A stretch of DNA of 64,000 nucleotides. Origin: Planctomycetota bacterium. GTDB lineage: Bacteria > Planctomycetota > GCA-002687715. Of this stretch, positions 11,449 through 29,498 are shown piece after piece. The DNA is taken from NCBI GenBank assembly GCA_002687715.1, contig NZBC01000036.1, positions 4,322-68,321 of the forward strand, in the 5' to 3' direction. Position 1 is the stretch's first letter. The number at the start of each line of letters is the position of its first letter. The notes below the pieces were generated by a model that searched no databases, was not told the origin of the DNA, and saw nothing but the letters and a program-made list of their open reading frames with translations. The translations under genes and the position numbers were made by a program.

Positions 11449-12264
11449 CTACGAGCTCGCACTCCTGACCGCGCCCGGCTCTTGGGGTAAGCCTGTCCTC
11501 GCCACCCTTCGGATCCACGCCGACGGCCAGTAGGTCACCGGGTCGCGGACCTTGCCCTCGTTGAAGCGGAAGGTCGGGGTCTGGATCTCGAACTCCGGGT
11601 GGGCGAGGACGAAGTCTCCCGCCGCGGAGGTCGGGTTGTTCGTAGCCCAGTCGGGGGCGGAGCGGGGGGCGCCCTGGAGTCCGGCCATGATGCCGTCGCA
11701 GGCAACGATGTAGGAGCCCTCGTCGACGAGGTCGTGGTAGGCATCGAGCTCGCGCTGCACGTGCTCCCGGGTGTGGCAGGAGTCGAGCAGGACGAGGACA
11801 CGCTCGCCGGGCTGGATCAAGGACTTCACTCGGGCGACGATCACCGGGTCGGTGGAGTCGCCTTCGATCATCGTGATGAGCTCGTCGGTGAGCTCGTGGG
11901 ATTCCATCGCAGCGCGGTTGTGAGGACGGATTTCCACGTCGACTCCGATGACACGACCATGACCCATCGCCTTGCAAAGGGAGGCGTGGAAGACCAGCGA
12001 GCCGCCGTGGGCGATGCCCGTCTCGACGATGACGTCGGGCTTCAGCTCGTAGATGACCTCCTGCAAGCGCACGATGTCCTCTGGGAGCTGGATGATCGGG
12101 CGGCCCATCCACGTGAAGCTGTAGACGTGCTTCGTGTCCCACCCGCAGCGCAGCCACGCCTGGGACACGATGCGGAACGCCTCGGAGCTGTCGAGCGGGT
12201 AGCTCTCCTCGACACCGTTCGACTCGGTGCACACACGACCGTTTTCGAGGTCGATCTTGATCAT
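11449..12264 (-). CDS. CmcI-family (cephalosporin-hydroxylase-like) class I SAM methyltransferase, likely sugar O-methyltransferase
   Basis: 271 aa. VETGIAHGGS SAM-binding region and overall similarity to PF04989 rhamnosyl O-methyltransferases. Its start overlaps the stop of the ketoreductase gene (ATGA). Confidence 0.7.
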   Translation of the reverse strand: MIKIDLENGRVCTESNGVEESYPLDSSEAFRIVSQAWLRCGWDTKHVYSFTWMGRPIIQLPEDIVRLQEVIYELKPDVIVETGIAHGGSLVFHASLCKAMGHGRVIGVDVEIRPHNRAAMESHELTDELITMIEGDSTDPVIVARVKSLIQPGERVLVLLDSCHTREHVQRELDAYHDLVDEGSYIVACDGIMAGLQGAPRSAPDWATNNPTSAAGDFVLAHPEFEIQTPTFRFNEGKVRDPVTYWPSAWIRRVARTGLPQEPGAVRSASS

Positions 12265-13088
12265 GTCACGCTCATCTCGGAGAGGGAGTCCTGGACCACC
12301 CGGACCATTTCCGGCAAGGCATCCACGACGGACCGGGGTCGGAAACCGAACTCATCGACGATCCGGTCGATGACCACCGCCACGTCCTCGATGCAGGGTG
12401 CATTCTCGGCGACGTCCCACCCGCAGCCGCAGATGGACGACAGCCGTTCCACGATCGCGCGATGAGTCGTGAGGGCGCCGGACGCCACGTTGTAGATCCG
12501 ATGGACCCCACGAAGCGCGATCGCCTCGATCATTGCCACGACGTCGTTCAGGTGCACATAGTCCTTGCACGACGCGGCACTCGTTCGCAGCGAGACGTGG
12601 CCGTTCACGGCCTCGCGAACGATCGACGCGAGGAAGTTGTCCGAAGCGTCGCCCGGCGCCGAGACGTTGCTCAGGCGAACGACGCGGCCCCGCATCCGCC
12701 GCGCGGACAGCGTCAGCGCCTCGCCGGCGAGCTTCGAGATGTCGTAGAGGTGATCCGAATCGCGGGGGTCCACGATGAACGCCGACTCTTCGTGCCCCGA
12801 CGGTGCTCCGCGATAGAGGCGCGCGGACGCCAGGTACGAGAACGACGCTGCGTCCCCGTCGGCCAGGACCCGCGCCGGGAGCGCCACGTGCGGTTCGGCG
12901 ACCTCCAGCGGACGATGCCGGAAGTCGGCCGTCAGCCCGGCCGCCCACACGACGTGCCCCAGCTCAGAGCCGCGCCAGCTGTCATCATCCCGCCCCGGCA
13001 CTTCCACGTCGTGGCCCTGGGTCTCGAGGTGGCGGACGAGCGCCGAGCCGATGAAGCCCCGCCCTCCGAACACCGTGAACCGCGCCAC
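12261..13088 (-). CDS. NAD(P)-dependent sugar epimerase/4-ketoreductase (short SDR-type)
   Basis: The true gene is only the distal 275 aa of the 563-aa track ORF. Start GTG 13088-13086 (VARFTVFGGRGFIGSAL, Rossmann GxxGxxG) overlaps the stop of the C-methyltransferase. The ORF has no internal Met upstream of the Rossmann fold. Confidence 0.65.
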   Translation of the reverse strand: MARFTVFGGRGFIGSALVRHLETQGHDVEVPGRDDDSWRGSELGHVVWAAGLTADFRHRPLEVAEPHVALPARVLADGDAASFSYLASARLYRGAPSGHEESAFIVDPRDSDHLYDISKLAGEALTLSARRMRGRVVRLSNVSAPGDASDNFLASIVREAVNGHVSLRTSAASCKDYVHLNDVVAMIEAIALRGVHRIYNVASGALTTHRAIVERLSSICGCGWDVAENAPCIEDVAVVIDRIVDEFGFRPRSVVDALPEMVRVVQDSLSEMSVT

Positions 13089-14356
13089 TACGGGATCACC
13101 TCGATGCGAGGAATCGGCACCACGAAGCGCCCGCCCCACGAGCGCACGAAATCCGCGCACTCGACGATCTCGTCCCGCAGGTTCCACGGCAGGATGAGCA
13201 CCCAATCCGGTCGCGCCGTCTTCAAGTACTCGACCGGGTAGACCGGGATGTGGCTGCCGGGCAGCCAGCGACCGTGTTTGCGCGGTGAACGGTCGACCGT
13301 GAACGAGACGAGGTCCCGGCCGATACCGCAGTAGTTGAGCAGCGTGTTGCCTTTCGCGGGCGCACCGTAGGCCGCGACGGCTTGGCCGCGCGCCTTGGCG
13401 TCCTCGAGGAACTTCCGCAGCCCGGTCCGCACCGAGCGTGCGCGCGCACCGAATGTCTCGTAGGTGTCCATCCGGAGGAGCCCGGCGCGGCGCTCCTCCG
13501 CGAGCACCTCGCTGACGGAAGGCCGCACCGACGGTGACGTCGCGGCGTGACCGACCCGGACCCGCAGGCTGCCGCCGTGGGTCTTCAGCCGCTCGACGTC
13601 GAACACGCTCAGCCCGACCCGCTCGAGAAGCCGCTTGGTCGCGGTCAGCGAGAGGTAGGAGAAATGCTCGTGGTAGATGGTGTCGAACTGCCCTTCGTCC
13701 ATCATCCGCAGCAAGTGCGGAAACTCGAGCGAGATCACTCCGTCGCGCGCAAGCAGGATGCGCAACCCCGAGACCAGGTCGCGAATGTCCGGGACGTGGG
13801 CGAGCACGTTGTTGGCGATGATGACGTCGGCCCGCCACCCGCGCTCGACCAGATCTCGCGCCGTTTCCTGACCGAAGAAGCGAACTTCCGTCGGGATACC
13901 CGCGGCGATCGCCACCTCGGCGACGTTGCGGCACGGGTCGACGCCAAGACACGGGATCCCGCGCGCGATGACGTTGCGGAGCAGGTAGCCATCGTTGCTC
14001 GCGATCTCGACGACCTTCGAATCCGGCCCGAGACCGCGCTCGGCGATGAGGTCGTCAACGAGCCTGGCTGCGTGATCGAGCCAGGAGTCGCTGAACGATG
14101 AGAAGTACGCGTAGTCGTCGTCGAAGAGCTCGTCCTGCGACCACACGGTCGCGATCTGCACGAGGTAGCAGTTTCCGCAGACGCGGGCGTGGAGGGGGCG
14201 CAGCCGCTCCTCTTCCGCGAGCTGATCCTCGGTCAGGTACGCGTTCGCTGACGGGTGGACACCGAGATCCGCCAGGGTGTTCGTCAACGGTGCGTCGCAG
14301 CCCCGGCACAGAACCCGTGGCTCGGCCCGGAGCATCGTCGCGGAACTCTCCCCCAT
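13088..14356 (-). CDS. NDP-hexose C-methyltransferase (TylC3/EryBIII/NovU family)
   Basis: 422 aa. N-terminal Zn-finger CRGCDAPL...CGNC. Class I MTase core (VVEIASNDGY) and C-terminal C-methyltransferase domain (AAYGAPAKGNTLLNY), characteristic of sugar C-methyltransferases. Confidence 0.75.
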   Translation of the reverse strand: MGESSATMLRAEPRVLCRGCDAPLTNTLADLGVHPSANAYLTEDQLAEEERLRPLHARVCGNCYLVQIATVWSQDELFDDDYAYFSSFSDSWLDHAARLVDDLIAERGLGPDSKVVEIASNDGYLLRNVIARGIPCLGVDPCRNVAEVAIAAGIPTEVRFFGQETARDLVERGWRADVIIANNVLAHVPDIRDLVSGLRILLARDGVISLEFPHLLRMMDEGQFDTIYHEHFSYLSLTATKRLLERVGLSVFDVERLKTHGGSLRVRVGHAATSPSVRPSVSEVLAEERRAGLLRMDTYETFGARARSVRTGLRKFLEDAKARGQAVAAYGAPAKGNTLLNYCGIGRDLVSFTVDRSPRKHGRWLPGSHIPVYPVEYLKTARPDWVLILPWNLRDEIVECADFVRSWGGRFVVPIPRIEVIP

Positions 14357-14536
14357 GTTCCAAACGTCGTCCGGGGCGAGGGTTTACGTTGAGAAAAGAT
14401 TCCCTCCGAGGCGCGCTTTGGCTCAAAACCCACCCGTGGGCTGAACGATAAGCAGAGATGGAATGAGGGAGCGGACGCTTCGGGCCGAGTTCCAGCACCG
14501 AAGGACCTCCCGAGAAGTCAGGGGAACCTCCGTCTC

Positions 14537-15361
14537 ATGAAGGTCGTGATCTTCGCTGGCGGATGGGGAACGCGTCTCGGCCAGATCGCGGATCGGGTGC
14601 CCAAACCCATGGTTCCGATCGGTGGACAATCCATCCTGCGGCACATCATGAACGCCTACGCCTGGCACGGGTACAAGGACTTCGTCCTGTGCCTGGGCGT
14701 CAAGGGCGACGCGATCCGCGCGTACTTCGAGAACCTCCCGGCGTATAGCCGCGACTTCACGATCGACCTCGCGACGGGCCGCAAGACGCTCCACGGCGCG
14801 TCGGAGCCGGTCCTCGACTGGAACGTGACCCTTGCCGGGACCGGGCTCAATACACTCAAGGGCGGACGGCTCAAGAAGGTCGGACGCTACCTCGACAGCG
14901 AGCACCACTTCCTGACCTACGGCGACGGCCTCGCCGACGTCGACCTGCAGGCGCTGCTCGCGTTCCACAAACGCCACGGCAAGTTGCTCACCATCACCGG
15001 AGTACATCCTCCGTCACGCTACGGAGAGATGGAAGAGCGCCGGGGCCGGGTGACCGCGTTCGCCGAGAAGGCGAGCTCTAGCCAGTGGATCAACGGCGGC
15101 TACATGGTCTTCCGACGCGGCTTGCTCGACTGGCTGACGACGGACGACGGGTGCGACTTCGAGAACGGGGTCGTATCCGAACTCGCGGGCCACGGCGAGG
15201 TCGCAATGTACCGCCACGTCGGCCCATGGATCGGCATGGATCACGAGCAGGACGTCCACGAGCTGGAGCGGCTACTCGCCGACGGCAGAGCATTCTGGAA
15301 GCCGTGGGAACGCGTGAAAGAGACCGCCGCCGTCTCGGCAAGTGACGAGCGTGCGTTCTGA
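14537..15361 (+). CDS. rfbF: glucose-1-phosphate cytidylyltransferase
   Basis: MKVVIFAGGWGTRLG...PKPMVPIGG nucleotidyltransferase signature, size 274 aa, and overall similarity to RfbF/DdhA. Confidence 0.85.
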   Translation: MKVVIFAGGWGTRLGQIADRVPKPMVPIGGQSILRHIMNAYAWHGYKDFVLCLGVKGDAIRAYFENLPAYSRDFTIDLATGRKTLHGASEPVLDWNVTLAGTGLNTLKGGRLKKVGRYLDSEHHFLTYGDGLADVDLQALLAFHKRHGKLLTITGVHPPSRYGEMEERRGRVTAFAEKASSSQWINGGYMVFRRGLLDWLTTDDGCDFENGVVSELAGHGEVAMYRHVGPWIGMDHEQDVHELERLLADGRAFWKPWERVKETAAVSASDERAF

Positions 15362-15371
15362 AGGGGAGATC

Positions 15372-16397
15372 ATGCGCGTACTCGTTACAGGACACCGCGG
15401 CTACATCGGGCCCTGGGTCGTCCGTCTGTTCAAGGACGCCGGCCACGAAGTGGTTGGCGTCGACGTCGGGTTGTTCGAGGGATGCGCATTCGAACCGTTG
15501 CCCTATGCCGACGCGGAGTGGTCCCGCGACTTCCGCGACCTGTCGGTACGGGACCTGGCTTCGTTCGACGCGATCGTCCACCTCGCGGCGATCTCCAACG
15601 ATCCGATGGGTGAACTCGACCCGGGCCTCACGCGGGCCGTCAATCTCGAGGGCTCCGTCGCGCTCGCCGAGTGCGCTCGCGACGCGGGGGTGAGCCGGTT
15701 CCTCTTCTCGGGCAGCTGCTCCGTGCACGGCAAGGGCGGCGACGACGCGCCCGCCGACGAGTCGTCACCGGTGCAGCCGTTGTCGGTGTACGCCGAGAGC
15801 AAGGTCCTCGCCGAGACGCGTATTGGCGCGCTCGCCCAGCCCGGATTCTCTCCGGTATTCCTGCGCAACGCGACGGCCTTCGGTCACTCGCCGATGTTGC
15901 GGATCGACCTCGTGGTGAACAACCTGCTCGCGTGTGCAGTGGCCCGAGGCGAGATCCGCATCCACTCCGACGGGTCTCCGTGGCGTCCATTGATCCACTG
16001 CCGGGACATCGCAGCCGCGCTCCTCGCGATCGCAGAAGCACCGGTCGAGCTCACCCACGGACTGGCGATCAACGTCGGCGATGACGGGCAGAACTACCGC
16101 GTCAAGGACGTGGCCGATGTCGTAGGCAACCTCGTCCCCACGGCCCGCGTCATCTACACCGGTGAGGCCGTCGACGACCCACGGGACTACCGCGTCTCGT
16201 TCTCGCGCCTCCGGCGGCTGCTCCCCGCATTCGCACCCCTCTACGATCTGCGCACTGGCGCGGAGGATCTCCTCCGACGCCTGCAGCAGCGCGGGTTCCG
16301 TCAGACTGATTTCGATAGTCCTCGCTACGTGCGCCTCCGCACCCTGCAGCGACGCGGCGAGGTCGCGGAACTACGTTACGAAAAGAGCTCGGTATGA
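15372..16397 (+). CDS. CDP-glucose 4,6-dehydratase-like NAD-dependent epimerase/dehydratase
   Basis: Start at ATG 15372 after a GGGGAG Shine-Dalgarno. MRVLVTGHRGYIGPWVV mirrors the RfbG motif VFVTGHTGFKGSWL. Extended-SDR size (341 aa). Sits between rfbF and the RmlC-like gene. Confidence 0.7.
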   Translation: MRVLVTGHRGYIGPWVVRLFKDAGHEVVGVDVGLFEGCAFEPLPYADAEWSRDFRDLSVRDLASFDAIVHLAAISNDPMGELDPGLTRAVNLEGSVALAECARDAGVSRFLFSGSCSVHGKGGDDAPADESSPVQPLSVYAESKVLAETRIGALAQPGFSPVFLRNATAFGHSPMLRIDLVVNNLLACAVARGEIRIHSDGSPWRPLIHCRDIAAALLAIAEAPVELTHGLAINVGDDGQNYRVKDVADVVGNLVPTARVIYTGEAVDDPRDYRVSFSRLRRLLPAFAPLYDLRTGAEDLLRRLQQRGFRQTDFDSPRYVRLRTLQRRGEVAELRYEKSSV

Positions 16398-16948
16398 GAT
16401 TCGTAGGAACAGGACTCCAGGGCGCATGGATCATCGAGACGGAGTCGCACGAGGACACTCGTGGGTCGTTCGCTCGTACGTTCTGCGCGCGAGAATTCCG
16501 CGAGCGCAGACTCGAATCGCGGATGGTCCAATCCAGCATCTCGCGGAACCAGCTCCGGCACACCCTGCGTGGGCTGCACTGGCAGGCGGGCGCGGCTGGA
16601 GAAGCCAAGCTGATCCACTGCGTCCGAGGCGAGATCCTCGACGTTCTCGTCGACCTCCGGCGGGGGTCACCCACGTTTGGTCGCCACGAGAAGGTCGTCC
16701 TGTCGGAAGACAACCAGCGCATGGTGTACGTTCCGCGTGGGTTCGCGCACGGGTTCCTCACGCTGCGCGACGACACGTGGGTCTCCTATCAGATGACCAA
16801 TCACTACGCGCCGCAGAGCGCGCGCGGCCTGAAGTGGAACGACCCTCACCTCATCATCGCGTGGCCAGTCGACCAGCCGCGGGTGTCCGATCAGGACGCC
16901 AACTGGCCGGACTTCGAACCAGCAGCCATCACGGCCGAGATGCCATGA
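16394..16948 (+). CDS. NDP-4-keto-6-deoxyhexose 3,5-epimerase (RmlC-like cupin)
   Basis: 184 aa. Conserved RmlC-type motifs (ETRGSF, SRN.LRG.H, YVP.GFAHGF, Y...Y). Confidence 0.8.
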   Translation: MRFVGTGLQGAWIIETESHEDTRGSFARTFCAREFRERRLESRMVQSSISRNQLRHTLRGLHWQAGAAGEAKLIHCVRGEILDVLVDLRRGSPTFGRHEKVVLSEDNQRMVYVPRGFAHGFLTLRDDTWVSYQMTNHYAPQSARGLKWNDPHLIIAWPVDQPRVSDQDANWPDFEPAAITAEMP

Positions 16949-17901
16949 ACGCCCGCGTCACTGTGATCATCCCGGCCACCGAAGGCGCCGACCGGATTGC
17001 CCGACTCGTCGCGTACTGGCACGGCCGTCTCGTCCGCATCATCCTCTGTGACGGCTCGCCGGACGGATTCTCGATCGCGGCGACGAAACCGACGCTGCAT
17101 CTACGTCGGCCGGGGTCGACGTGGATCGATCTCGTCGCTGACGGCGTTGCTCGCGTCCAAACCGACTACGCGCTCGTGTGCGACACGGATGTGTTCGTGA
17201 CCCCGACCGCGATCGGCTCCGCGATCGCGTGGCTCGACGTCCACCCCGGGCACGCGGCCGTTCAGGGACGCCACCTGCGTGCCATTCACGGCGCCGATGA
17301 TGTCCAGTTCGAGCCGTGTGAGATCCTGGGCGGGCTGCAGATGGTCTCGGCGGAGTGCCCGTCGGTCCGCGTACAGCAGATCTTCGACCCCTACCTGCAC
17401 GTCGTCACCGCGCTCCATCGGACGGAGACGCTGCGAGACGCGTTCTGTGGATTCCTGCGTGGAACATGTATCTCGGCCCGAGCGCTCGCCGAGCTACTGC
17501 TGGCGATGATCACGGCCGTCAACGGCAAGGTCCGCGTCTTGCCGGTGCCCTGGTGCGTGCGAGAGGTCTCCCACTCGGGCGAGACGACAAGCCCCACGCC
17601 GAGCCTGCTCACCCTGCTCGATGACCCCGACGCCGCCGACCAGATCGATCGCTTCCTGGGATCAGCCATCGTTCACCTCATGAACCGCGCCGACGTCCCG
17701 CAGGGGGACGCGCGAACGAGCGTGGGCAGTGCCCTGGACGTCTATCTCAACCGCTACTTGCCGCGCCTGCACCGACACCGCCTGCTTCCAGCGGTCGAAC
17801 GTGCTGCCCGCTCACTCACTCATCGCGGGTACCCCTCGGACGACCACGAAGATCTGGTGGCGATCCGCGCAGCGCTCTTGGGCGCCGTGGTCCAGGCCTA
17901 G
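16945..17901 (+). CDS. putative glycosyltransferase (GT2-like)
   Basis: True start MNARVTVIIPATEG at ATG 16945 overlaps the rmlC-like stop (ATGA). The upstream part of the 579-aa track ORF is non-coding. N-terminus resembles GT-A fold transferases, with an acidic DTD motif. Confidence 0.5.
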   Translation: MNARVTVIIPATEGADRIARLVAYWHGRLVRIILCDGSPDGFSIAATKPTLHLRRPGSTWIDLVADGVARVQTDYALVCDTDVFVTPTAIGSAIAWLDVHPGHAAVQGRHLRAIHGADDVQFEPCEILGGLQMVSAECPSVRVQQIFDPYLHVVTALHRTETLRDAFCGFLRGTCISARALAELLLAMITAVNGKVRVLPVPWCVREVSHSGETTSPTPSLLTLLDDPDAADQIDRFLGSAIVHLMNRADVPQGDARTSVGSALDVYLNRYLPRLHRHRLLPAVERAARSLTHRGYPSDDHEDLVAIRAALLGAVVQA

Positions 17902-18902
17902 CCCTGCGACGGGTCCTCTCGGAGGAGCCGGATCAGCGCGAGGAGGAACTCCGCGTGGACCTCGCCGTAGTGGCGCAGGCTGCACAGAAGCCGATTGGCA
18001 CGTCTGAGCTTGTAGCCACCAGCGGGATGGACGTCTTCCATGGCGCGTTCCCTCTCGACGCCCGGGAGCGGGTTCATCTCCACGCTCAACGCCACCGCAC
18101 CCCGCACACGTCCGAACCAGTCCATGGTGAGGCCGCGCCGACTGGGTCCGCTCATCTCGAACGCGAGACTGTGCGGGTAGACCATGCTCTCGTAGATCGC
18201 GCAGATGTCGGCGTAGCGTTTCCGCTGATCCTTCGGGGGGTATTTCGGATGGATGATGAGGTTCGCGGAGGTGTGGTAGCTGATCGCGAGGTCGATAGGG
18301 CCGACCCGTTTCCAGAACGCCATGACCGCCTGCGTTTCCGGCTCGGGTACGGAGACGTGCTCCGCGATCGATCGGCCGTCGATCGTGACTGCCTTGATCG
18401 GATAGTTGCGGTTGAGGTCGACGTCGTGAACGTTGTTGCGGTGATGCGGAAACGGCGGTCGCATCCCGCGGTGGAGGCCGTCGGGATTCAGCACCGGCGC
18501 AAGGTAGAGGCGGATTCGAGAAAGCCAGGCGGGAGGCTTGCCTTCGCCGATGGCCCGCCGCAGGTGCTCAGCGACCGCGAGCGCGGGGCGCTGGCTACCG
18601 AGCTCACCGCCGTGGATCGCACCGTCGATCCAGTAACCCTTCTTCTTTCCCGTCGCTTGTGTATCGGTCACGACCAGGCACGGGAGGGGCCGCCCCTGCA
18701 CGGAGTGGCCCATGATCTCGACGGAGAACCAGCGCGGCGCAGCTTCCTCGAGCGTCCGGAACCATGCCAACACCATCGAGACGTCATAGAAGCGGTCCAC
18801 GGCCAGTTCGGCGTCAACGACTCGACCCGACGTCGGCGCGTCTGCGCAACCCAGCAGCAGGACAGCCAACAGAGGCAGCAAGAGCACCCACCGACTGATC
18901 AA
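17898..18902 (-). CDS. M14 zinc carboxypeptidase lipoprotein (MpaA / gamma-D-Glu-DAP peptidase-like)
   Basis: Lipoprotein signal (LLAVLLLGCADAP). M14 motifs HGGE, NPDG..R and ISYHT. 334 aa. Confidence 0.7.
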   Translation of the reverse strand: MISRWVLLLPLLAVLLLGCADAPTSGRVVDAELAVDRFYDVSMVLAWFRTLEEAAPRWFSVEIMGHSVQGRPLPCLVVTDTQATGKKKGYWIDGAIHGGELGSQRPALAVAEHLRRAIGEGKPPAWLSRIRLYLAPVLNPDGLHRGMRPPFPHHRNNVHDVDLNRNYPIKAVTIDGRSIAEHVSVPEPETQAVMAFWKRVGPIDLAISYHTSANLIIHPKYPPKDQRKRYADICAIYESMVYPHSLAFEMSGPSRRGLTMDWFGRVRGAVALSVEMNPLPGVERERAMEDVHPAGGYKLRRANRLLCSLRHYGEVHAEFLLALIRLLREDPSQG

Positions 18903-19585
18903 GATCCGCCCTCCTTCAAGTCCATTCCGGTGCGCCGAACCACCTGACCTGCCGCGGCCGCCACGAGGCGCCGCACGACGCCGAGCCCGAGGTCCTCATC
19001 CGCCGTTCGTTCCGGATGCCACTGCACTCCGAGCCAGAATCGGCGCGACGGATCGAGAATGGCCTCGATGACGCCATCCGGAGCCCGCGCGACGACTTCA
19101 AGGCCGCCGGGTGTGGCGAGCGCCTGATGGTGCGCGCTCGTGACCGGCCCAGCAAGGTGCGTACCCTCGACCAGGTGGACATGGTCGTTCGTGTGCAGCT
19201 GGGGACGGTCGAGGACGTCGTCGAGGTGCTGCTCGAGTCTCGCGCCGGCCCGCAGACCCATGAGCTGCATCCCGAGGCACACGCCGAGCGCGGGGAGATC
19301 GCTGGCGTAGCACTGCGCGAGCAACGCGAGGTCCGATTCCTGGCGACGCGGGTCCATCAGCCTCGCTGCGGGATGGGTGGACTGACCGAACGCCTCCGTC
19401 GCCGGATCGCGGCCGCCGGTGAACAGCACCCCGTCGCATCGCTCCGCCAAGGCCGACGCGCCGCGACCAACGGGAAGGATCATCGAATCGCCGCCCGCCC
19501 TCTCGATGGCGCGAACGTAGTCGGCGCCAACGGTGAGGCAGTCGTCCCGGAGGTCCGCGGTAAGTCCGATGACGGGGCGGGTCAT
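18899..19585 (-). CDS. class I glutamine amidotransferase-like peptidase C26 (gamma-glutamyl hydrolase family)
   Basis: 228 aa. Catalytic GVCLGMQ and WHPE motifs of PuuD-like gamma-glutamyl-GABA hydrolases. ATGA overlap with the M14 gene. Confidence 0.8.
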   Translation of the reverse strand: MTRPVIGLTADLRDDCLTVGADYVRAIERAGGDSMILPVGRGASALAERCDGVLFTGGRDPATEAFGQSTHPAARLMDPRRQESDLALLAQCYASDLPALGVCLGMQLMGLRAGARLEQHLDDVLDRPQLHTNDHVHLVEGTHLAGPVTSAHHQALATPGGLEVVARAPDGVIEAILDPSRRFWLGVQWHPERTADEDLGLGVVRRLVAAAAGQVVRRTGMDLKEGGS

Positions 19586-19589
19586 GCCC

Positions 19590-20570
19590 TCATGTGATCA
19601 TGAACTGGCTGCGACCGGTACCCTTCGCCAGGCTGTCGTAGACCGCGCGATGGGACGGAGCAGCCTCGCGCAGGCGCGGCAACCCGCAATCGGAGGCGTC
19701 GGCGAGCAACTTCTGGAGGAAGACGCCCGTTGACTCGCTCACCGGCAGACTGCCGATCGGGTGTTCCACGTCGTGGACGAGATCGTGGAGGGTGCCCTCG
19801 TTTTCCTCGAGGACGAAGACGGGCGCGCCCGACTCCTTGTCGCGTACGGTGATTCGAATGGGGCCGGGGCCGAACCCGTCGCCGCCGCAGACCAGCGTCA
19901 GCGTGTCGCCGTGTGGAACGCGGAACGTGGCGGAGCCAACGAACTCCTCGAACTCGGGGCCGCGACGAGAGAACTCGGGCGCCGCCTCGATGATCGCAGC
20001 CGTACACGCGATCGATTCCGCGCCGGCGGCGAAACGGAACGCCTCGACGAGGTGCACCGAATTACAACCGTACCCCCAGCCCTCCCCCGTCACGAGCATG
20101 TGAAACGGACCGGGGCGTTCAGCGAGCCCGTCGCGCAGCCGCCGCCATCCCTCGAACAGGTTGCGGACGCAGTTGACGTAGATCCGTTTCTCAGAGATGG
20201 CGCCCGAGTAGGTCGCGATGATCGACTCCAGCGCCTCCGGAGACTGGGCGGCTGGCTTCTCGACGAGTACGGCCCGCGGAGCCATGGCCGCGATCCCTTC
20301 GACGACCTCCGGCTGGCGATCCGCAGTGACCGCCGCGATCGCGCACCCGATGCCGTTGCCGTTGATCGCGCTCTCAGCGTCGTCGAGGCCGGACACCACA
20401 TCCACCTCGACCTCGGAGAGCTCTCCCGCAAGCCCGAGGATGTCGTTCCGCCGGGTTTGCCGTGGCTCGACCACGACAATGCGTCCGATCGACGGCACGC
20501 CCGCCGCCGCCTGGACATGACGCCAGCCGATGTCTCCACAACCGACGATGAGGACGGTCGCTCTGGTCAT
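19590..20570 (-). CDS. Gfo/Idh/MocA-family NAD(P)-dependent oxidoreductase
   Basis: Start re-assigned to MTRATVLIVGCGDIGWRH (Rossmann). 326 aa. Confidence 0.7.
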   Translation of the reverse strand: MTRATVLIVGCGDIGWRHVQAAAGVPSIGRIVVVEPRQTRRNDILGLAGELSEVEVDVVSGLDDAESAINGNGIGCAIAAVTADRQPEVVEGIAAMAPRAVLVEKPAAQSPEALESIIATYSGAISEKRIYVNCVRNLFEGWRRLRDGLAERPGPFHMLVTGEGWGYGCNSVHLVEAFRFAAGAESIACTAAIIEAAPEFSRRGPEFEEFVGSATFRVPHGDTLTLVCGGDGFGPGPIRITVRDKESGAPVFVLEENEGTLHDLVHDVEHPIGSLPVSESTGVFLQKLLADASDCGLPRLREAAPSHRAVYDSLAKGTGRSQFMIT

Positions 20571-20586
20571 GGATCGAAGGCTCTGG

Positions 20587-21549
20587 TCATGAAGCGTAGC
20601 CAGCGATCGTCTCGATGATCGCCAGGGTCTCCGCGAAGGTACGAAGTTGGGGCAAGACACTGGGGGACGTGGGCCGCTCCCGTAGTCCGTCGAACGCCTC
20701 CACCGTGCGCCAGACGCCCGGCTTCCAGTCGGTGTCCAGGCTGTCGGTAGGGGGGATCTCGGTCCACGCCACGGTGCCGGGTCGCATCACGAACAGACGC
20801 TCCATCGGCGCCAGACGATACCGACCCTGGCGCGTCCGCACCTCGATCGACCACCGTCCGGGAGCGATCCAACTCGACGACCAGGTCACCGGCACGGCAG
20901 TACAACGTCCGCTTCCCACGAAGGTCGCGCCTGCCGGATGCCAGGTCAACGCCCCCGGGTCGCCAACCGTCACATGGTCGGGTCGCAACGGTCCCAGCAG
21001 GTGCTCGACCGTGTCGATGACATGAATCGAGTTCGCGAGGGCCCACCGCTCCAGCACGTCCGCGCGGCGTCCACTGGTCGCGACGCGATCGGCCCATTCG
21101 GTGAAGTCGAACCTAGCGCACAGCGGCGCTTCGTCGTCCAGGATCGCACGGAGGGCAACCACCGATCCGAAGTACCGCCGGTTGGTCGCGATCCGTACGA
21201 GCGCGCCGACCTCCTCGGCCCGGTCCGCGAGCCCACGCAGCGCACCGGCGGACATCGCCCCGGGCTTCTCCAGCAGCATCTCGCGTGCACCGAGATCGAG
21301 CAGGCGGGTCGCCACCGGGTCGAGGCTCTCCGGCGTGGTGGCGACGATCGTCCAGGCGGACTCCGCGACCGTCCCGGCGTCGAGGTCTTCGAGCAGGACA
21401 TGGTCGACCGCGCCCGTCTCGTCCGCGAATACCGCGGTCCGGCCGGGGTCGCGTGCCACCACGCGGAAGGACGTTCCCCGCCCACGCAACACGCGTGCAT
21501 ACTCGCGGGCCATCGGCCCGGAACCGACGAGGAGGACGGAAGGCAGCAT
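20587..21549 (-). CDS. Gfo/Idh/MocA-family NAD(P)-dependent oxidoreductase (paralog)
   Basis: Start re-assigned to MLPSVLLVGSGPMAREYARVL (Rossmann). 320 aa. Tandem with the previous gene. Confidence 0.7.
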   Translation of the reverse strand: MLPSVLLVGSGPMAREYARVLRGRGTSFRVVARDPGRTAVFADETGAVDHVLLEDLDAGTVAESAWTIVATTPESLDPVATRLLDLGAREMLLEKPGAMSAGALRGLADRAEEVGALVRIATNRRYFGSVVALRAILDDEAPLCARFDFTEWADRVATSGRRADVLERWALANSIHVIDTVEHLLGPLRPDHVTVGDPGALTWHPAGATFVGSGRCTAVPVTWSSSWIAPGRWSIEVRTRQGRYRLAPMERLFVMRPGTVAWTEIPPTDSLDTDWKPGVWRTVEAFDGLRERPTSPSVLPQLRTFAETLAIIETIAGYAS

Positions 21550-21657
21550 GGATTCTCTTCGTGTTTCATCGGCCAAGAGCACCGTTCGAGGCACTGTCGC
21601 GAATATCGACGGCCGCGGGACGTGGCGGCACGGCGGGCGAGAGCATATCCTCGCGCG

Positions 21658-23964
21658 ATGCGCGTCTTCCTCCTCCTCTTCCTGCTCCCGCTTCCGACCG
21701 CCGGGGCCCAGACACCGCTGGCCAGGGATCTCGCCGCTGCGGCTGACCGCGCGATGGCCGCCGGACATGCGCCTGGGGTCGTCATCCGAGCGCAGCAACT
21801 CGACGGAGCGGTCGACGTCACGGTCGTACGGGGCGTGGCGGCCGAGGCCCCAGCCCGCGAAACGTGGAACGAAGGCTCGCTACCAGCTACCGGCCGCACG
21901 TTCGACCTGGCCTCGCTCACGAAGTGTGTCGCGACCGCGACCTGCGTGATGAAGCTCGTCGAAGAAGGTCGCTTGAAGCTGTCGGACCGCGCGGCGGATC
22001 ACCTGCCCGGGTTCGGGGTCAATGGCAAGGACGTCATCACCGTCGAACAGCTCCTGCGGCATCGCGGCGGCCTTCTGCCCGATAACCGGCTCGCCGACTA
22101 TCGCGACGGCGCGAGGCTGGCTCGCAAGCGCATCTACGCGCTCGGACTGCGAGCGGCACCGGGCACGCGGTACATCTACACCGACGTCGGCTTCATCGTG
22201 CTTGCCTGGATCGTAGAGAAGGTGACGGAGCAGCCGTTCGACGCCTACGCGAAGGCCGCGGTCTTCGCCCCGTGCGGCATGGCCCACACCGGGTTCCTGC
22301 GTGGCGGTGCGCCCAAGGCAGCGTGGTCAGCTCGTTCCATTCCGACCGAACCGGCGCGCGAGGGCGGAGCGCCGCTGCGGGGCGTGGTCCACGATCCGCG
22401 CGCCCGGCTGCTCGGCGGAGTCGCCGGTCACGCCGGCTTGTTCTCCACGATCGACGACCTCTCGCGCTACGCCCGCATGATCCTGCGCGGCGGCGTCGCC
22501 GACGACGGCACGCGCGTTCTCACGGCCGCGACCATCCGCCTCATGGGACGGTGCGGGCCCCTCCCCCGCCTGGAACGCCGGGGACTGGGCTTCGACCTGC
22601 GCCCGCTCGCGTTCACTCGCAAGGGCCCACGCGGACGTCACTTCCCGGACGGGACCTTCGGCCACACGGGGTTCACGGGCACGTCCATGTGGATGGACCC
22701 CGCGTCGAAGAGCTACGTGATCGTCCTGACCTCGCGTCTGCATCCCGACGGGCGCGGCGACGTCTCGCAACTCCGCTACGACGTCGGCACCGCGGTCGCG
22801 AAGGCCCTCGATCCACGCCCGTGGGCGCTGCGCCTCGGTCCCGCGCGCTCAGGGCTGCAGCGCATCGCCGACGGTGAGGTCTTGCCGGCGCTCACCGGCA
22901 AACGGATTGGCCTCATCACCAACCACACCGCTCGCGACCGCACGGGTGCATCGGCGATCGAGCGGCTGCACCCTCACGGACTCCGCGCGCTCTTCTCCCC
23001 GGAGCACGGCATCGCCGGCAAGTTCGACGCGCGCGTCGGCGACGCGGTCGATCCGCTGACCGGGCTGAAGATCCACAGCCTCTACCAGAAGGACCGCCGG
23101 CGGCCGTCGAAAGCGGCTCTGAAAGACCTCGACGTACTCGTGTTCGACATCCAGGACATCGGCACCCGGTTCTACACCTACGTCTCGACCATGGTGAACT
23201 GCATGGAGGAAGCGTCCCGAAACGGGTTGTCGTTCGTCGTACTCGACCGTCCCAATCCGATCGGCGTCGCCGTCGAGGGTCCGATCGCGAACGACGACGC
23301 CCTGGACTTCGTCGGTCGACTGCGGATTCCCATCCGCCACGGCATGACGGTCGGGGAACTCGCGCGCCTCGCGAAGCAGGACCTGAAGCTCGATCTCGAC
23401 CTCCAGGTCGTGGCCGTCAAGGACTGGTCACCCAATCAGTACCTCGACGATACCGGGCAACGCTGGGTCAACCCCTCCCCCAACATGCGCTCCATGGCGG
23501 CTGCGCTTCTCTACCCGGGTATCGGCATCCTCGAGACGACGAACCTCTCGGTCGGTCGCGGCACGAAGACTCCGTTCGAGCACGTTGGCGCTCCCTGGAT
23601 GAACGGCGAGGCGATCGCCAACGACCTCCGCGCCGCCGCCCTCGACGGCATCACCTTTTCCCCGGTGACCTTCACTCCCACCTCGAGCAAGTACCGCGGC
23701 AAGCGCTGCTCCGGAGTCCGCTTCGCCATCACCGATCGCACTGCACTGCGCCCGATTCGTGTCGGCCTGACCCTCGCCACCGCACTGCGGAAACACCACC
23801 CCGTCCAGTGGGACACCGCCCGCCTCGGACGCCTGCTCAAGCACCGCAAGACGCTCATCGCGATCCGGCGTGGCCGCGGAGTCACGGATATCGAGAAGAC
23901 GTGGACGTCCGAGGTCGCCGCGTTCCGGGAACGACGCAAGGCGGCTCTGATCTACGCTCGCTGA
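21658..23964 (+). CDS. fusion protein: beta-lactamase-fold serine hydrolase (AmiE/AmpH-like) + DUF1343 (NamZ-like exo-beta-N-acetylmuramidase)
   Basis: True start MRVFLLLFLLPLPTAGAQ (signal peptide) at 21658. N-terminal domain has SLTK (SxxK) and YxN-like motifs of class C/PBP4 beta-lactamase-fold enzymes. The C-terminal ~400 aa match DUF1343 (GKRIGLITNHTA ... DIQDIGTRFYTY ... NLSVGRGT). Confidence 0.75.
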   Translation: MRVFLLLFLLPLPTAGAQTPLARDLAAAADRAMAAGHAPGVVIRAQQLDGAVDVTVVRGVAAEAPARETWNEGSLPATGRTFDLASLTKCVATATCVMKLVEEGRLKLSDRAADHLPGFGVNGKDVITVEQLLRHRGGLLPDNRLADYRDGARLARKRIYALGLRAAPGTRYIYTDVGFIVLAWIVEKVTEQPFDAYAKAAVFAPCGMAHTGFLRGGAPKAAWSARSIPTEPAREGGAPLRGVVHDPRARLLGGVAGHAGLFSTIDDLSRYARMILRGGVADDGTRVLTAATIRLMGRCGPLPRLERRGLGFDLRPLAFTRKGPRGRHFPDGTFGHTGFTGTSMWMDPASKSYVIVLTSRLHPDGRGDVSQLRYDVGTAVAKALDPRPWALRLGPARSGLQRIADGEVLPALTGKRIGLITNHTARDRTGASAIERLHPHGLRALFSPEHGIAGKFDARVGDAVDPLTGLKIHSLYQKDRRRPSKAALKDLDVLVFDIQDIGTRFYTYVSTMVNCMEEASRNGLSFVVLDRPNPIGVAVEGPIANDDALDFVGRLRIPIRHGMTVGELARLAKQDLKLDLDLQVVAVKDWSPNQYLDDTGQRWVNPSPNMRSMAAALLYPGIGILETTNLSVGRGTKTPFEHVGAPWMNGEAIANDLRAAALDGITFSPVTFTPTSSKYRGKRCSGVRFAITDRTALRPIRVGLTLATALRKHHPVQWDTARLGRLLKHRKTLIAIRRGRGVTDIEKTWTSEVAAFRERRKAALIYAR

Positions 23965-24209: not shown

Positions 24210-25175
24210 TCAGAAATCGCCGCGCCCCATCTCGATCAGCACCTTGAGCACACCGCTCCGTTCCGCATGGTCCAGCGCGGTGACCGCGTCGTCGAGCGGG
24301 TAGCGCGCGTCGATCATGCCCCGTGGGTCGATCCGACCGTCGGCGAGAGCAGCGAGGGCCGGGGCGAACGGTCCGCAGCGGGAGCCCACGAGGGTGATCT
24401 CGTCGACGACGATCGGCGCGAGGTCGAGGGTGGCTGGTTGCTCGCTGGTGGTTTTCAGGACGACCGTGCCGCGAGCGCGCACGTGGGTCAGCACGCGAGC
24501 GAGGGCGTCGGGATGGCCCGTCGCCTCGACGGCAATATCGAACGGTCGGTCCGCAGCCTCCGTCTCGAGGAGACCCGTGACGTGCGCGATGGACGATGGC
24601 AGGAGCCGTGCCCGCTCCGGGTGACGTCCCGCGAGGGTGACGTCCACACCGTAGAGCGCGAGCACCTGGGCGCAAAAGAGGCCGAGACGTCCGTCGCCCG
24701 CGACGAGCCCGCACATCCCCGGCGCGAGCGCCACCTGATTGGGGATCTCGAACGCCGCCGCCAGGGGCTCGGCGAAGACGGCCGACTCGTCCGGCACGGT
24801 GTCGGGCACGGCGATGAGATTGCGCGTAGGCAGCAAGACCTCCTCCGCGAACACCCCGGGGCGGCCGAGGATGCCCAGCACCGTCCGGGTCAAGCAGTGG
24901 TGGCCGTCGCCCTCGGTGCAATCGGCGCAGCGTCCACACGATGCGTTGATCCCGCCCACGACCCGCTGGCCAATCAGCGGCCCGTCGAGAGCCATGCCGA
25001 CGAATTCGTGGCCGGGCACGCCGCGGAATCCCAGGTAGCCGCGCCGCAGCGCCAGGTCCGTGGCACACACACCGGCGACACGGACCTCGATCCGCGTCTC
25101 GTCGAAAGGCCCCGGTGCCAGGGTCACGTCGTCGCGCAGCTGCGCCGCACCGTCCTCGAACCAGAGGGCTTTCAT
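24210..25175 (-). CDS. zinc-binding alcohol dehydrogenase (MDR family)
   Basis: 321 aa. GHEFVG Zn-ligand motif, structural Zn Cys cluster (CGRCADCTEGDGHHC) and GxGxxG (VAGDGRLG). Confidence 0.8.
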   Translation of the reverse strand: MKALWFEDGAAQLRDDVTLAPGPFDETRIEVRVAGVCATDLALRRGYLGFRGVPGHEFVGMALDGPLIGQRVVGGINASCGRCADCTEGDGHHCLTRTVLGILGRPGVFAEEVLLPTRNLIAVPDTVPDESAVFAEPLAAAFEIPNQVALAPGMCGLVAGDGRLGLFCAQVLALYGVDVTLAGRHPERARLLPSSIAHVTGLLETEAADRPFDIAVEATGHPDALARVLTHVRARGTVVLKTTSEQPATLDLAPIVVDEITLVGSRCGPFAPALAALADGRIDPRGMIDARYPLDDAVTALDHAERSGVLKVLIEMGRGDF

Positions 25176-26951: not shown

Positions 26952-29498
26952 ATGAATCGCAGGGCACTCCCGCTCCTCCTCGTCGCGCTTCTCGGCACCA
27001 CCTCGTGCTCGCAGGAGCCGGACGTCGCCAGACCGCCCGCTGCGGGTGACGTCGCACGGTCCCGCGACGCGCTGAGGGCGTTCGTCGATCGCTATCGCAA
27101 GAGTCCCCGCACCTTCGGCCCGGAAACCCAGGACTGGGCGGACGGGGTCTGGACGTATCAGGCCTGGCGCAGTCTCCTGCTGGCCGGCGTCCCTGTCGAC
27201 CCGACCGCGGGCGCACCTGACGATCGCGCGGCTGCCTTGCGGGGTCTTCGCCGAGATCAGATCCCCACGCTCCTGGTTAGCCGACTGAAGCTGGCGCGAC
27301 TCTGGGGACTGAAGGTCGAGGAGGCCGGGGCCCCAGGCGTACCGTTCCTGCCCCTCATGACCTGGGTGGGGTCGCCGCCACTGGAAGAGCTCGAAGCGAG
27401 GGTGACTGCGGACGTGATGCGGGGCCGTAAGGTCGACGTCGCGGCGCTGAAACAGATGGTCGGATTCTGGCGCGGCCCCGACGGCGGCTATCGCTACCCC
27501 GCCGGCCTCGGCGAGATCTACCCGCGCATCCTCACCAACGCGACCACCTTCACCGCGCCACCGAGACCCCACCTGGGGACTTCTACGTGCGGTGCGATCG
27601 CCGCGGCCGTAGCCTGCCTCACGCAGGTCGGCGTGCCCGTCCCCCGGCTGGACGCGGTCGTTCTGCGGCTACGCGCGCTGCGCTCCGGCGGACATTGGAG
27701 TCAGCAGCGGAACCCACTTCACGACGGAACCGGTCTCTGGGCGACCTGGAACGCACTGCGCGCCCTGTCGATGCTCGGCGTCTCGAGCGAAGCGCCGGAC
27801 GAGATCGCAGCGTGGCTCCGCACTCTGCGCCATCGCGACGGCGGCTTCGCCCATGCCCTCGACGAGCCCGCGAGCCTAGAAGCGACGTGGCTCGCGCTCG
27901 AGTGTCTGCGCCTCATTCAGCGCCCTCTGGGTCCGATGCCATCGAAGCCAGCCGCCGGACGACTGCCGAAGGCGAACGGCGCCAACGACGCATCACTGAA
28001 GCCACTGCAGGCCGTCGTACAAATGGGACCCGATCCAGCGGCTTCGGTGGTCCTCGCCCGTCGCGCGGGCGCGGACCTGTTGCTGCTGAAGAGCCTCGAC
28101 CACGACGAGCCCGCCCTCGTCGCGCGCGCGCGGCGGCTCGCCGCCCGGCTGCCCGGACCGAAGCTCGAGATCGCGTGCGTCCGAGAGGAGCACCGCAGCG
28201 CATGGGGCGTCGAGGGCATCGGGTACGTGACCCACTGCTCGGACGCGGTGTTCGCTCCGGCGGTGACGCTGGGCCAACGTGGCCGTCATCGCACGTTCGA
28301 CGAGATCCTCGACGCGTGGAAGGTCAACCGGTTGAGGGGCTGCGTGTTCTTCTCCTGTTCGTATCTGAATCGCGAGCTGCTCGCGCCCGCCTATGACCGG
28401 TCGTCGCGGCGGTTCGCCGACGGCTATGACGCTCTCATGGTCGGCTGGGCGTTCGCGCGCGGCGGCGACCTCATCCGGGACTATCCGTGGCTCCACCGAT
28501 ACGTTGGACGGATGGCGCTCATCGGCAACCATGACGCCCACGGGGACCCGCTCCACTGGTTCCACCGGGGGATGCGTACCCGCACGCTGTTCTTCGCGAA
28601 GGACGCGTCGGTCGCGTCGTTTCAGGAGGCGGTCCGCTTGGGACGCACGGTCGCGGTCGTGCACGGTCCGGTCGCTCCGGCGTACTGGGGCCACCCGACG
28701 TGGGTCGAGAAGGCGAAGGCGCGTCGCGCGGATTGGGATCGCGGACGTCCGGGGTTCACGCCCGGCGAGTGGCTACCAGCCCCGTTCGCCGCTCCGATCG
28801 ACGCGTCGACGCAGGTCGAGATGCCGTGGGTCACGAGAGGCTTCGGCATCCTCGTTCGTGCCGCGGGCCGCATCGCCGACGACGCGATGCCGCACGAGGT
28901 CACGGTCCGGGTCGGCGGGGAGGATGAGCCGCGGGTCCCGCTGCGCATCGTCCCCGCGGACGGCAAGCGACCTCCGGCACTGTGGGCGCCCCTCCCGGAT
29001 CTGAAGCCTGGTGATCACCTGGTCGTCGTAGAGGCGTTCGGTCAGACCTCGCGCCAGACGCTGCGGTGGGTCGCCCCCGTCGCGATCGCGACTCCTCCGA
29101 CGATGGCTCCACCACCGGCCCTCGAGTTCCGCGGCGCGAACGAGTTGCCGTGGGTGAGCAACACCTCGCTGGCGCCGGGCGACTTCGAAGGGTCGCTGCG
29201 GATCGTGTGCAACCGCGCGGACTTCGCGCTACGCGCGTCGCCTGGGAAGTCGCGCTTGCGCGTGAAGTGGCGTGGCGGGAAGGCCGCCGGTCCGCTGCAG
29301 TTCTTCGTCGACGGCGCGTCCGTCGGCGCGGTGACGCCGAACGGCTCGCCCGGCGAAACCAGCTTCGATTTCGACGGCGCGACAGCCCGCGCCCACCGCG
29401 TCACGTTGCGCACCGCACTGCCCGGCTGGATCTCATCGTTCGATCGCCCGAAAAGCGACCTCGAGTTGCTCCTTCTCGCCGTGGAGACGCGCCCATGA
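26952..29498 (+). CDS. large lipoprotein with prenyltransferase/terpene-cyclase-like alpha-alpha repeats
   Basis: Start MNRRALPLLLVALLGTTSC (lipobox) at 26952. N-terminal half has repeated ...DGGF/DGGY.. W..L.AL motifs like squalene-cyclase/prenyltransferase repeats. C-terminal half unassigned (HxH/GNHDAHGD metal-like motif). Confidence 0.5.
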   Translation: MNRRALPLLLVALLGTTSCSQEPDVARPPAAGDVARSRDALRAFVDRYRKSPRTFGPETQDWADGVWTYQAWRSLLLAGVPVDPTAGAPDDRAAALRGLRRDQIPTLLVSRLKLARLWGLKVEEAGAPGVPFLPLMTWVGSPPLEELEARVTADVMRGRKVDVAALKQMVGFWRGPDGGYRYPAGLGEIYPRILTNATTFTAPPRPHLGTSTCGAIAAAVACLTQVGVPVPRLDAVVLRLRALRSGGHWSQQRNPLHDGTGLWATWNALRALSMLGVSSEAPDEIAAWLRTLRHRDGGFAHALDEPASLEATWLALECLRLIQRPLGPMPSKPAAGRLPKANGANDASLKPLQAVVQMGPDPAASVVLARRAGADLLLLKSLDHDEPALVARARRLAARLPGPKLEIACVREEHRSAWGVEGIGYVTHCSDAVFAPAVTLGQRGRHRTFDEILDAWKVNRLRGCVFFSCSYLNRELLAPAYDRSSRRFADGYDALMVGWAFARGGDLIRDYPWLHRYVGRMALIGNHDAHGDPLHWFHRGMRTRTLFFAKDASVASFQEAVRLGRTVAVVHGPVAPAYWGHPTWVEKAKARRADWDRGRPGFTPGEWLPAPFAAPIDASTQVEMPWVTRGFGILVRAAGRIADDAMPHEVTVRVGGEDEPRVPLRIVPADGKRPPALWAPLPDLKPGDHLVVVEAFGQTSRQTLRWVAPVAIATPPTMAPPPALEFRGANELPWVSNTSLAPGDFEGSLRIVCNRADFALRASPGKSRLRVKWRGGKAAGPLQFFVDGASVGAVTPNGSPGETSFDFDGATARAHRVTLRTALPGWISSFDRPKSDLELLLLAVETRP

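Follow-up and report, generated by a model that had tools for sequence, protein, structure and literature searches.

We analysed a stretch of 64,000 nucleotides from a Planctomycetota bacterium (GenBank contig NZBC01000036.1, positions 4,322 to 68,321 of the forward strand), hereafter called the window, with a focus on a single gene whose product joins an AmiE-like serine hydrolase to a NamZ-type muramidase. The window has a guanine-plus-cytosine (GC) content of ~67% and is matched by a contig of a marine metagenome and by a scaffold from Tara Oceans; the product of a gene adjoining the fusion gene is deposited at NCBI under the locus tag CMJ83_02745 and the label “MAG: Planctomycetes bacterium”, where MAG stands for metagenome-assembled genome. 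The fusion gene lies on the plus strand within an open reading frame (ORF) spanning 20938..23964. Its credible start is the ATG at 21658, which gives a gene of 21658..23964 (stop codon included) and a product of 768 amino acids, and the identical product (100%) was called on five independent metagenome contigs.

The fusion protein begins with MRVFLLLFLLPLPTAGA followed by QTP. Residues 1–17 (MRVFLLLFLLPLPTAGA; 21658..21708) form a predicted Sec signal peptide, read from the sequence, with cleavage before Q18; the N-terminus has no lipobox, and the AlphaFold model has a predicted local distance difference test (pLDDT) value of ~52 over residues 1–20. Three Pfam domains follow. A β-lactamase-fold serine-hydrolase domain of the S12/PF00144 type occupies residues 26–366 (21733..22755; 186 bits, E 1e-54). 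After an inter-domain linker at residues 367–416 (22756..22905, the space between the Pfam envelopes), which contains a helix at residues 370–383 and in which pLDDT falls to 74–76, come the Rossmann-like catalytic domain of glycoside hydrolase family 171 (GH171), NamZ_N (PF07075), at residues 417–613 (22906..23496; 243 bits, cut-off 26.9), and the auxiliary domain NamZ_C (PF20732) at residues 617–766 (23506..23955; 153 bits, cut-off 25). The model as a whole has a mean pLDDT of 90.3 and a predicted template modelling (pTM) score of 0.63. A divergent intergenic region of 108 base pairs (21550..21657) separates the fusion gene from four tightly packed genes on the minus strand. An earlier reading made without database searches (the sequence-only reading) had described a secreted 768-residue protein combining an SxxK hydrolase with a complete DUF1343 domain, divergent from these four genes. 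The coordinates of the five genes and the length of the protein were reproduced, profile searches matched both the Beta-lactamase and the DUF1343 families, with all three Pfam domains far above their cut-offs behind the predicted signal peptide, and the DUF1343 assignment survived.

The two NamZ profiles were covered almost in full, and the NamZ half aligned with Bacillus spizizenii NamZ at 41% identity over 366 residues (E 3e-98). Glu92 and Arg279 are the proposed catalytic residues of Bacillus subtilis NamZ (PMC8054146). Through the B. spizizenii alignment, E449 in the motif PEHG of the fusion corresponds to the putative catalytic Glu92, and R634 in GRGT corresponds to the cleft residue Arg279. 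A Foldseek search with the fusion model matched two Bacteroides fragilis structures of this family, BF0371 (4k05; E 3.9e-30, target-based TM score 0.90, root-mean-square deviation 2.0) and BF0379 (4jja; target-based TM score 0.84). Judged by its profiles, its aligned catalytic residues and its modelled fold, the C-terminal half is a predicted member of the NamZ/GH171 family.

The N-terminal domain required more comparison. Its active-site motifs S86-L-T-K89, Y174-T-D176 and H336-T-G338 align with those of AmiE, itself a PF00144 protein (PMC10653849, Table 1), and of YfeW, the penicillin-binding protein 4B (PBP4B) of Escherichia coli. Two further motifs are common to the fusion, AmiE and PBP4B: VHD(P/E), present as V-H245-D-P-R, and GV(A/S)GHAGLFS, present as G-H258-A-G-L-F. 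BLAST alignments gave 31% identity to YfeW over 334 residues (E 3e-43, 144 bits) and 28–29% identity to Bacillus AmiE (125–127 bits), and among the NCBIfam models PBP4B scored 118.8 bits, ahead of LipE (64.7), AmpH (32.3) and class C (27.6). By sequence comparison, AmiE/PBP4B is the nearest characterised family, closer than esterases, class C β-lactamases or AmpH, and the AmiE-like label given in the sequence-only reading fits both this relationship and the conserved motifs. Because AmiE and YfeW share 53% identity with each other over ~400 residues and only 28–31% with the fused domain, the latter represents a sister group rather than an orthologue of either.

We then asked which residues are retained across the family. 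When 68 fusion homologues with 46–59% identity were aligned, the SxxK, YxD and HxG motifs and the additional AmiE/PBP4B-type motifs of the N-terminal domain were invariant, as were E449 and R634 of the NamZ half. The catalytic positions thus do not vary in either half, and both active sites are under selection.

A different enzymatic activity for the N-terminal domain was also considered, namely that of a family VIII or EstG-type esterase or another non-peptide hydrolase, which might for example remove O-acetyl or other groups that block the muramidase; alternatively, the whole protein might act on a glycan other than peptidoglycan. The best matches of the domain among solved structures are the carboxylesterases 4ivi, Est-Y29 and EstB together with EstG, and automatic pipelines label homologues as “Esterase EstB”. 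However, the esterase structures match with at most 60 bits (the best PDB sequence match reached 59.9 bits) compared with 125–144 bits for AmiE and YfeW, the AmiE/PBP4B-specific motifs are invariant, and the genes that recur around the family are MurNAc-specific (MurNAc, N-acetylmuramic acid; see below). We therefore regard this alternative as quite unlikely. To our knowledge, no structure of AmiE or PBP4B exists, which explains why a structure search with the N-terminal half returns generic families.

To assess how widespread the fusion is, we searched with the fusion protein, which gave ~7,900 proteins with E values of 1e-10 or below. All of the 120 best matches, which were examined, had the three-Pfam architecture. 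These came from Planctomycetota (Gimesia, Singulisphaera, Rhodopirellula and Thermoguttaceae) and Acidobacteriota (Blastocatellia). In addition, a pattern scan of metagenome contigs yielded at least 596 confirmed relatives. Homologues carry database names such as “exo-beta-N-acetylmuramidase NamZ domain-containing protein”, “Esterase EstB” and “YbbC (DUF1343)/CubicO group peptidase”, and a “DDPept-DUF1343” architecture, that is, a DD-peptidase domain (PF00144) followed by DUF1343, was listed in a 2008 survey of serine-protease architectures (PMC2605481). The rarity that the sequence-only reading had implied does not hold: the fusion is a common and already catalogued architecture, and the window contributes a new member that is ordinary within its family.

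To examine the genomic context of the family, we assembled 86 loci with a full-length fusion gene, 6 from look-ups of exact proteins and 80 from the metagenome scan; individual loci are cited below by L numbers. Neighbours were counted by tblastn with reference proteins. This replaced an unsupervised clustering of neighbouring ORFs, which produced many alternative-frame artefact clusters in the high-GC loci. MurQ, at 45–47% identity to the E. coli and Bacillus enzymes, was encoded near the fusion in 20 of the 86 loci. A gene of glycoside hydrolase family 3 (GH3) was found in 14, mostly directly upstream on the same strand with a median gap of ~300 nucleotides, and 10 of these 14 GH3 neighbours carried the NagZ signature KHFPGHGDTxxDSH. 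A BadF/BadG-type, MurK-like kinase occurred in 10 loci, with the kinase for MurNAc and N-acetylglucosamine (GlcNAc) 8zo3 as its best PDB match (E 1e-39). Sodium:solute symporter (SSF) genes were found in 11–21 loci, and 12 loci encoded an outer-membrane protein resembling TonB-dependent receptors. Of the 57 loci that had at least 4 kb of flanking sequence on one side, 24 carried one or more core MurNAc genes. The recurrence of MurQ, NagZ, MurK-like kinase and symporter genes supports, through guilt by association across loci, a role of the fusion family in MurNAc and peptidoglycan salvage.

A second, stand-alone PF00144 gene was also observed beside the fusion in 6–12 of the 86 loci, often together with MurQ. 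Its product has ~30% identity both to the fused N-terminal domain and to AmiE, and the gene lies upstream of the fusion on the opposite strand (L125 7982-9586; also L142, L145, L150, L162 and L169).

How the two halves might work together is suggested by the known pathway. NagZ, AmiE and NamZ act sequentially, with NamZ acting on peptide-free MurNAc ends (PMC8054146; bioRxiv 10.1101/2021.12.02.470905). Because NamZ accepts only peptide-free MurNAc, the fusion would couple steps 2 and 3 of the series NagZ, AmiE, NamZ. On balance, we think it somewhat probable that the fusion is a secreted, bifunctional and exo-acting hydrolase of peptidoglycan fragments in which an AmiE-like amidase acts before a NamZ muramidase. 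We infer the amidase specificity, the hand-over of substrate between the domains and the localisation as follows. The protein would be exported to the periplasm or the cell exterior, where a separate NagZ encoded elsewhere would perform step 1. In a glycan strand or muropeptide, the S12 domain would then strip the stem peptide from the MurNAc that forms the non-reducing end, after which the GH171 module would split off the peptide-free MurNAc. A MurT/MurK/MurQ-like route, encoded at another place in the genome, would take up the freed sugar and catabolise it.

One alternative shares most of this scheme and differs in the bond that the N-terminal domain cleaves. In this case the domain would be a PBP4B-like peptidase (DD-carboxypeptidase or endopeptidase) that cleaves inside the stem peptide; the fusion would trim peptides or undo their cross-links, and the NamZ half would act only on strands stripped beforehand by another amidase. 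PBP4B is indeed the top-scoring named family for the domain, its neighbours in structure and sequence include the R61 DD-peptidase and D-peptidases, and a passage in PMC5061867, citing Vega and Ayala 2006, describes PBP4B as a penicillin-binding protein of low affinity with DD-carboxypeptidase activity. On the other hand, PBP4B is itself 53% identical to AmiE, a demonstrated amidase, and is encoded in a murQP operon. An amidase step is the logical one to couple with an enzyme that requires MurNAc free of peptide, and no separate amidase gene recurs beside the fusion among the 86 loci. We consider the peptidase alternative unlikely. In E. coli K-12, yfeW occupies the third position in the murQ-murP-yfeW operon, and we observed that yfeW and amiE both stand in MurNAc-catabolic operons (L008 6103-7407; L012 3549-4874); from its similarity to AmiE, E. 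coli PBP4B may be an amidase of the AmiE type instead of being primarily a DD-carboxypeptidase.

Several observations weigh against the reading of the fusion as an amidase coupled to a muramidase. The N-terminal domain, at 118.8 bits, lies below the cut-off of 385 bits of the PBP4B equivalog model (NF002968), its identity to AmiE and PBP4B is only 28–31%, and in the alignment it does not have two insertions that those proteins have in common. Foldseek places it near family VIII esterases of a generic kind, EstG and the R61 DD-peptidase, and the fold therefore does not reveal the specificity of the domain. In the model, the mutual placement of the two halves is only moderately confident (pTM 0.63). 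A core MurNAc-pathway neighbour was found in only 32 of the 86 loci, and in Gimesia and in one Blastocatellia metagenome-assembled genome the fusion gene stands among unrelated genes. In the 64-kb window itself, tblastn detected no MurQ, NagZ, MurK-like kinase, SSF, MurP or MurR. Finally, our literature search returned the 2008 architecture listing alone and found no functional study of an AmiE–NamZ fusion. Nevertheless, the bifunctional reading is a reasonable one, and it is strengthened by the conservation of catalytic residues and by the MurQ, NagZ and MurK neighbourhoods in the wider family.

As a comparison with known systems, we retrieved Bacillus operons using a fragment of B. subtilis NagZ (YbbD) that was verified as 100% identical to PDB 3bmx; Bacillus stercoris, whose NagZ is 98% identical, and B. 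spizizenii served as proxies for B. subtilis 168. The retrieved loci have the gene order murQ-murR-murP-amiE-nagZ-namZ. Bacillus AmiE (YbbE) and NamZ (YbbC) belong to the same families as the two halves of the window fusion, PF00144 and GH171, and resemble them in catalytic motifs and secretion (PMC8054146). They catalyse consecutive exo-lytic steps of peptidoglycan breakdown as separate proteins, with nagZ lying between their genes, whereas in the window they form a single polypeptide; the contrast drawn in the sequence-only reading between separate proteins in Bacillus and a fusion here is borne out by these operons. Unlike the Bacillus operon, the window has neither murQRP nor nagZ, and the N-terminal half is a divergent sister of AmiE/PBP4B without their two insertions. 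Where NagZ directly precedes the fusion in other loci, the gene order reproduces the Bacillus trio of NagZ, AmiE and NamZ in two genes. We also observed that in the draft genome of B. stercoris D7XPN1 namZ (ybbC) (L012 6830-8086) is apparently interrupted, with only an ORF of 284 residues over its C-terminal two-thirds; the gene could be frameshifted or a pseudogene, or the sequence could contain an error; B. spizizenii NamZ is intact at 414 residues (L010 6832-8076).

Other systems resemble the fusion in part. E. coli PBP4B represents the curated family closest to the N-terminal domain, and its linkage to MurNAc catabolism is also seen in part of the fusion family, though not in the window; it is a stand-alone protein reported as a DD-carboxypeptidase, and the window domain lies far below its equivalog cut-off. 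RmNag3 of Rhodothermus marinus, likened here by its description, has a similar design as a secreted exo-glycosidase that combines a GH3 NagZ module with a C-terminal PF00144 domain (PMC6987092). It differs in that its glycosidase is GH3 (step 1) rather than GH171 (step 3) and in that the domain order is reversed; only its GH3 activity has been characterised (PMC6987092). Tannerella forsythia NamZ1 and NamZ2 and B. fragilis BF0371 and BF0379 have the GH171 fold in common with the fusion, but they are single-module proteins with no fused hydrolase domain, and NamZ1 is a disaccharide-releasing variant. The murTKQ genes beside T. forsythia NamZ1 are mirrored by the set of transporter, MurK-like kinase and MurQ genes of many fusion loci.

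We further analysed the four minus-strand genes that diverge from the fusion. Starting from the 108-base-pair gap, these encode Gfo1 (20587..21549, 320 residues), a predicted cytoplasmic Gfo/Idh/MocA oxidoreductase; Gfo2 (19590..20570, 326 residues), a Gfo/Idh/MocA-like protein with a VEKP motif; C26 (18899..19585, 228 residues), a predicted cytoplasmic protein resembling PuuD/SpuA γ-glutamyl hydrolases and class-I amidotransferases; and M14 (17898..18902, 334 residues), a predicted zinc carboxypeptidase lipoprotein with the lipobox LLLGC and the motifs HGGE and NRNYP. Successive genes are separated by 16 and 4 nucleotides and then overlap by 4. In the sequence-only reading, this array was part of a candidate peptidoglycan-recycling locus in which M14 and C26 would trim the released peptides and the two Gfo oxidoreductases could act on the amino sugars set free. 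The array and the fusion gene do lie side by side, divergent across a short gap, and an exported lipoprotein, as predicted for M14, and a hydrolase of the γ-glutamyl-bond type would be chemically compatible with stem peptides.

The conservation of this arrangement was assessed across the family. By tblastn, Gfo1, Gfo2 and M14 were found beside the fusion in one of the 86 loci, namely the window’s own contig, and were absent from the other 85. In a related planctomycete (L170), a Gfo1-Gfo2-C26 block with 54%, 41% and 59% identity to the window genes is present, and no fusion gene was found in the 12.9 kb that carry it. This block adjoins a gene for a glycosyltransferase of 1,210 residues and deoxysugar genes that also flank the window array, the genes common to both being an orf318 homologue, a dTDP-sugar isomerase, a 4,6-dehydratase-type epimerase and a nucleotidyltransferase. 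In the window, the corresponding genes are those for an NTP_transferase (14537-15361), a dehydratase/epimerase (15372-16397), the dTDP-sugar isomerase (16394-16948) and orf318 (16945-17901). They form part of a deoxysugar and nucleoside diphosphate (NDP)-sugar cluster at 11658-17901 that abuts the M14 gene convergently and includes a C-methyltransferase and a CmcI-type methyltransferase, whose genes lie upstream on the minus strand.

The assignment of the two oxidoreductases to the Gfo/Idh/MocA family holds, for Gfo1 by Pfam (25.9 bits, cut-off 24), the EKP motif and the fold, and for Gfo2 by Pfam (26.5 bits) and the VEKP motif alone. Because the PDB sequence search was almost empty for Gfo1 (Gfo2 had no match), Gfo1 was placed by its predicted structure, which has a pLDDT of 94.6. 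A Foldseek search with this model gave TM scores of 0.75–0.8 to inositol dehydrogenase, 1,5-anhydrofructose reductase, GnnA, WlbA and GenD2, of which GnnA is a UDP-GlcNAc 3-dehydrogenase. Residues E94-K95-P96 are invariant among Gfo1 homologues. The subfamily is rare, with 18 matches in a collection of 5.8 billion proteins, and the Gfo1 homologues of Aquirufa (Bacteroidota) and Amylibacter (Alphaproteobacteria) lie inside polysaccharide-biosynthesis clusters that include DegT aminotransferases, glycosyltransferases, Wzy and nucleotidyltransferases. These contexts point to nucleotide-sugar and glycan biosynthesis rather than to catabolism of freed amino sugars, the role proposed for the Gfo enzymes in the sequence-only reading. 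Gfo1 thus probably acts in a glycan/NDP-sugar pathway and not in peptidoglycan salvage, and Gfo1 and Gfo2 most likely belong with the adjoining deoxysugar and glycan biosynthesis genes.

Membership of M14 in the general family is clear from its 98-bit Pfam score and its HxxE and NRNYP motifs. Its description as MpaA-like was not borne out: it scored 19.3 bits against a cut-off of 157 for the MpaA model (NF007897) and aligned with E. coli MpaA at 30% identity over 105 residues (37 bits, BLAST). Its best PDB matches are carboxypeptidases D and B2, closer to the classical M14A/B peptidases, and its presence in the window is most likely a lineage-specific insertion.

C26, in turn, retained its γ-glutamyl hydrolase-like description. 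It matched PF07722 at 128.5 bits (cut-off 20.5), carries the Cys and His motifs of the class-I amidotransferase triad, GVCLGMQ and QWHPE, and has 3fij, 7d4r and PuuD (6vtv) as its nearest PDB structures. It is the sole member of the array kept beside the fusion, and only in four loci of a close clade, namely the window and the three closest fusion relatives L003, L004 and L005, whose fusions have 53–59% identity to that of the window. The C26 orthologues of these relatives (50–56% identity to window C26) lie 29 nucleotides upstream of the fusion on the same strand in L003, divergent from it at a distance of ~60 base pairs in L004, and divergent also in L005, where an S41 peptidase gene intervenes. 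No similarity to Gfo1, Gfo2 or M14 was found among the proteins adjoining C26 in L004 and L005. This adjacency is compatible with γ-glutamyl peptide catabolism, and equally with membership of the sugar cluster or with plain inherited synteny. A literature search found no link between peptidase C26 and peptidoglycan. A more daring proposal, which we rate as very unlikely, is that C26 is a new γ-D-glutamyl-(meso-diaminopimelate) hydrolase that replaces MpaA/YkfC and forms a minimal two-gene salvage module with the fusion, to which M14 would add a periplasmic trimming step in the window’s lineage.

The C26 orthologues beside the fusion in the three relatives count in favour of a single recycling locus. 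The absence of Gfo1, Gfo2 and M14 from the other 85 loci, the fusion-free block of L170 beside matching deoxysugar genes, the polysaccharide clusters around Gfo1 homologues of other phyla, the failure of M14 against the MpaA model and the lack of a C26–peptidoglycan link in the literature search all count against it, and we judge a locus of this kind to be improbable. Most likely, the Gfo1-Gfo2-C26-M14 array does not serve the fusion as a dedicated partner and instead reflects juxtaposition with a glycan-biosynthesis neighbourhood. Of the candidate peptidoglycan-recycling locus, what stands is the fusion, whose family has MurQ, NagZ, MurK-like kinase and transporter genes as neighbours; the divergent operon does not stand as its partner, and C26 retains an ambiguous link only.

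Other neighbouring genes were observed in the window and its relatives. On the plus strand downstream of the fusion lie genes for a lipoprotein of ~850 residues with no clear Pfam family (26952-29498) and a sulfatase-domain protein of ~1,200 residues (29495-33130). This pair follows the fusion in the close clade (L003 10398-16546; L004 11171-17041), where in L003 and L004 it is co-directional with the fusion with tiny gaps or overlaps, and the lipoprotein has 39–49% identity between relatives. The lipoprotein and the sulfatase-domain protein may be real operon partners of the fusion in this clade. A gene of the Zn-dependent alcohol dehydrogenase family (24210-25175, minus strand) is kept directly downstream of the fusion at 63% identity; it overlaps the fusion stop codon by 4 nucleotides in L004 (10214-11161) and L005 (10190-11137) and is inverted in the window.

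Genes for proteins of ~540 residues without a Pfam match always follow C26 in the relatives (L004 5614-7260; L005 3736-5364; L170 6620-9937, where they are duplicated), and these proteins are 61–69% identical to one another. They are missing from the window, where M14, which is unrelated, occupies their position. A dTDP-sugar isomerase gene is also found near C26 in L005. About 10 kb downstream of the fusion, the window carries a gene for a BlaI/Penicillinase_R-type repressor (~33275-33964, minus strand; L001 21618-22307) together with an ORF of 117 residues; the repressor has no evident link to the β-lactamase-fold domain.

The value of the window is chiefly corrective, in that the story of a dedicated locus turns out to be mostly juxtaposition with a glycan-biosynthesis cluster. 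The idea of a two-step fused exo-hydrolase is of some value for work on peptidoglycan turnover and comes as little surprise. As a Rosetta-stone argument, the fusion suggests that the substrates of the poorly understood AmiE/PBP4B branch of the β-lactamase fold are MurNAc-peptides and not antibiotics. Should the bifunctional reading hold, many Planctomycetota and Acidobacteriota would use one secreted protein for two of the three exo-lytic steps by which peptidoglycan is broken down. Both phyla are abundant in the sea and in soil, and much organic carbon and nitrogen is stored in peptidoglycan; such an enzyme would bear on the turnover of bacterial necromass. It would likewise bear on cell-wall recycling in planctomycetes, a group whose peptidoglycan was long disputed.

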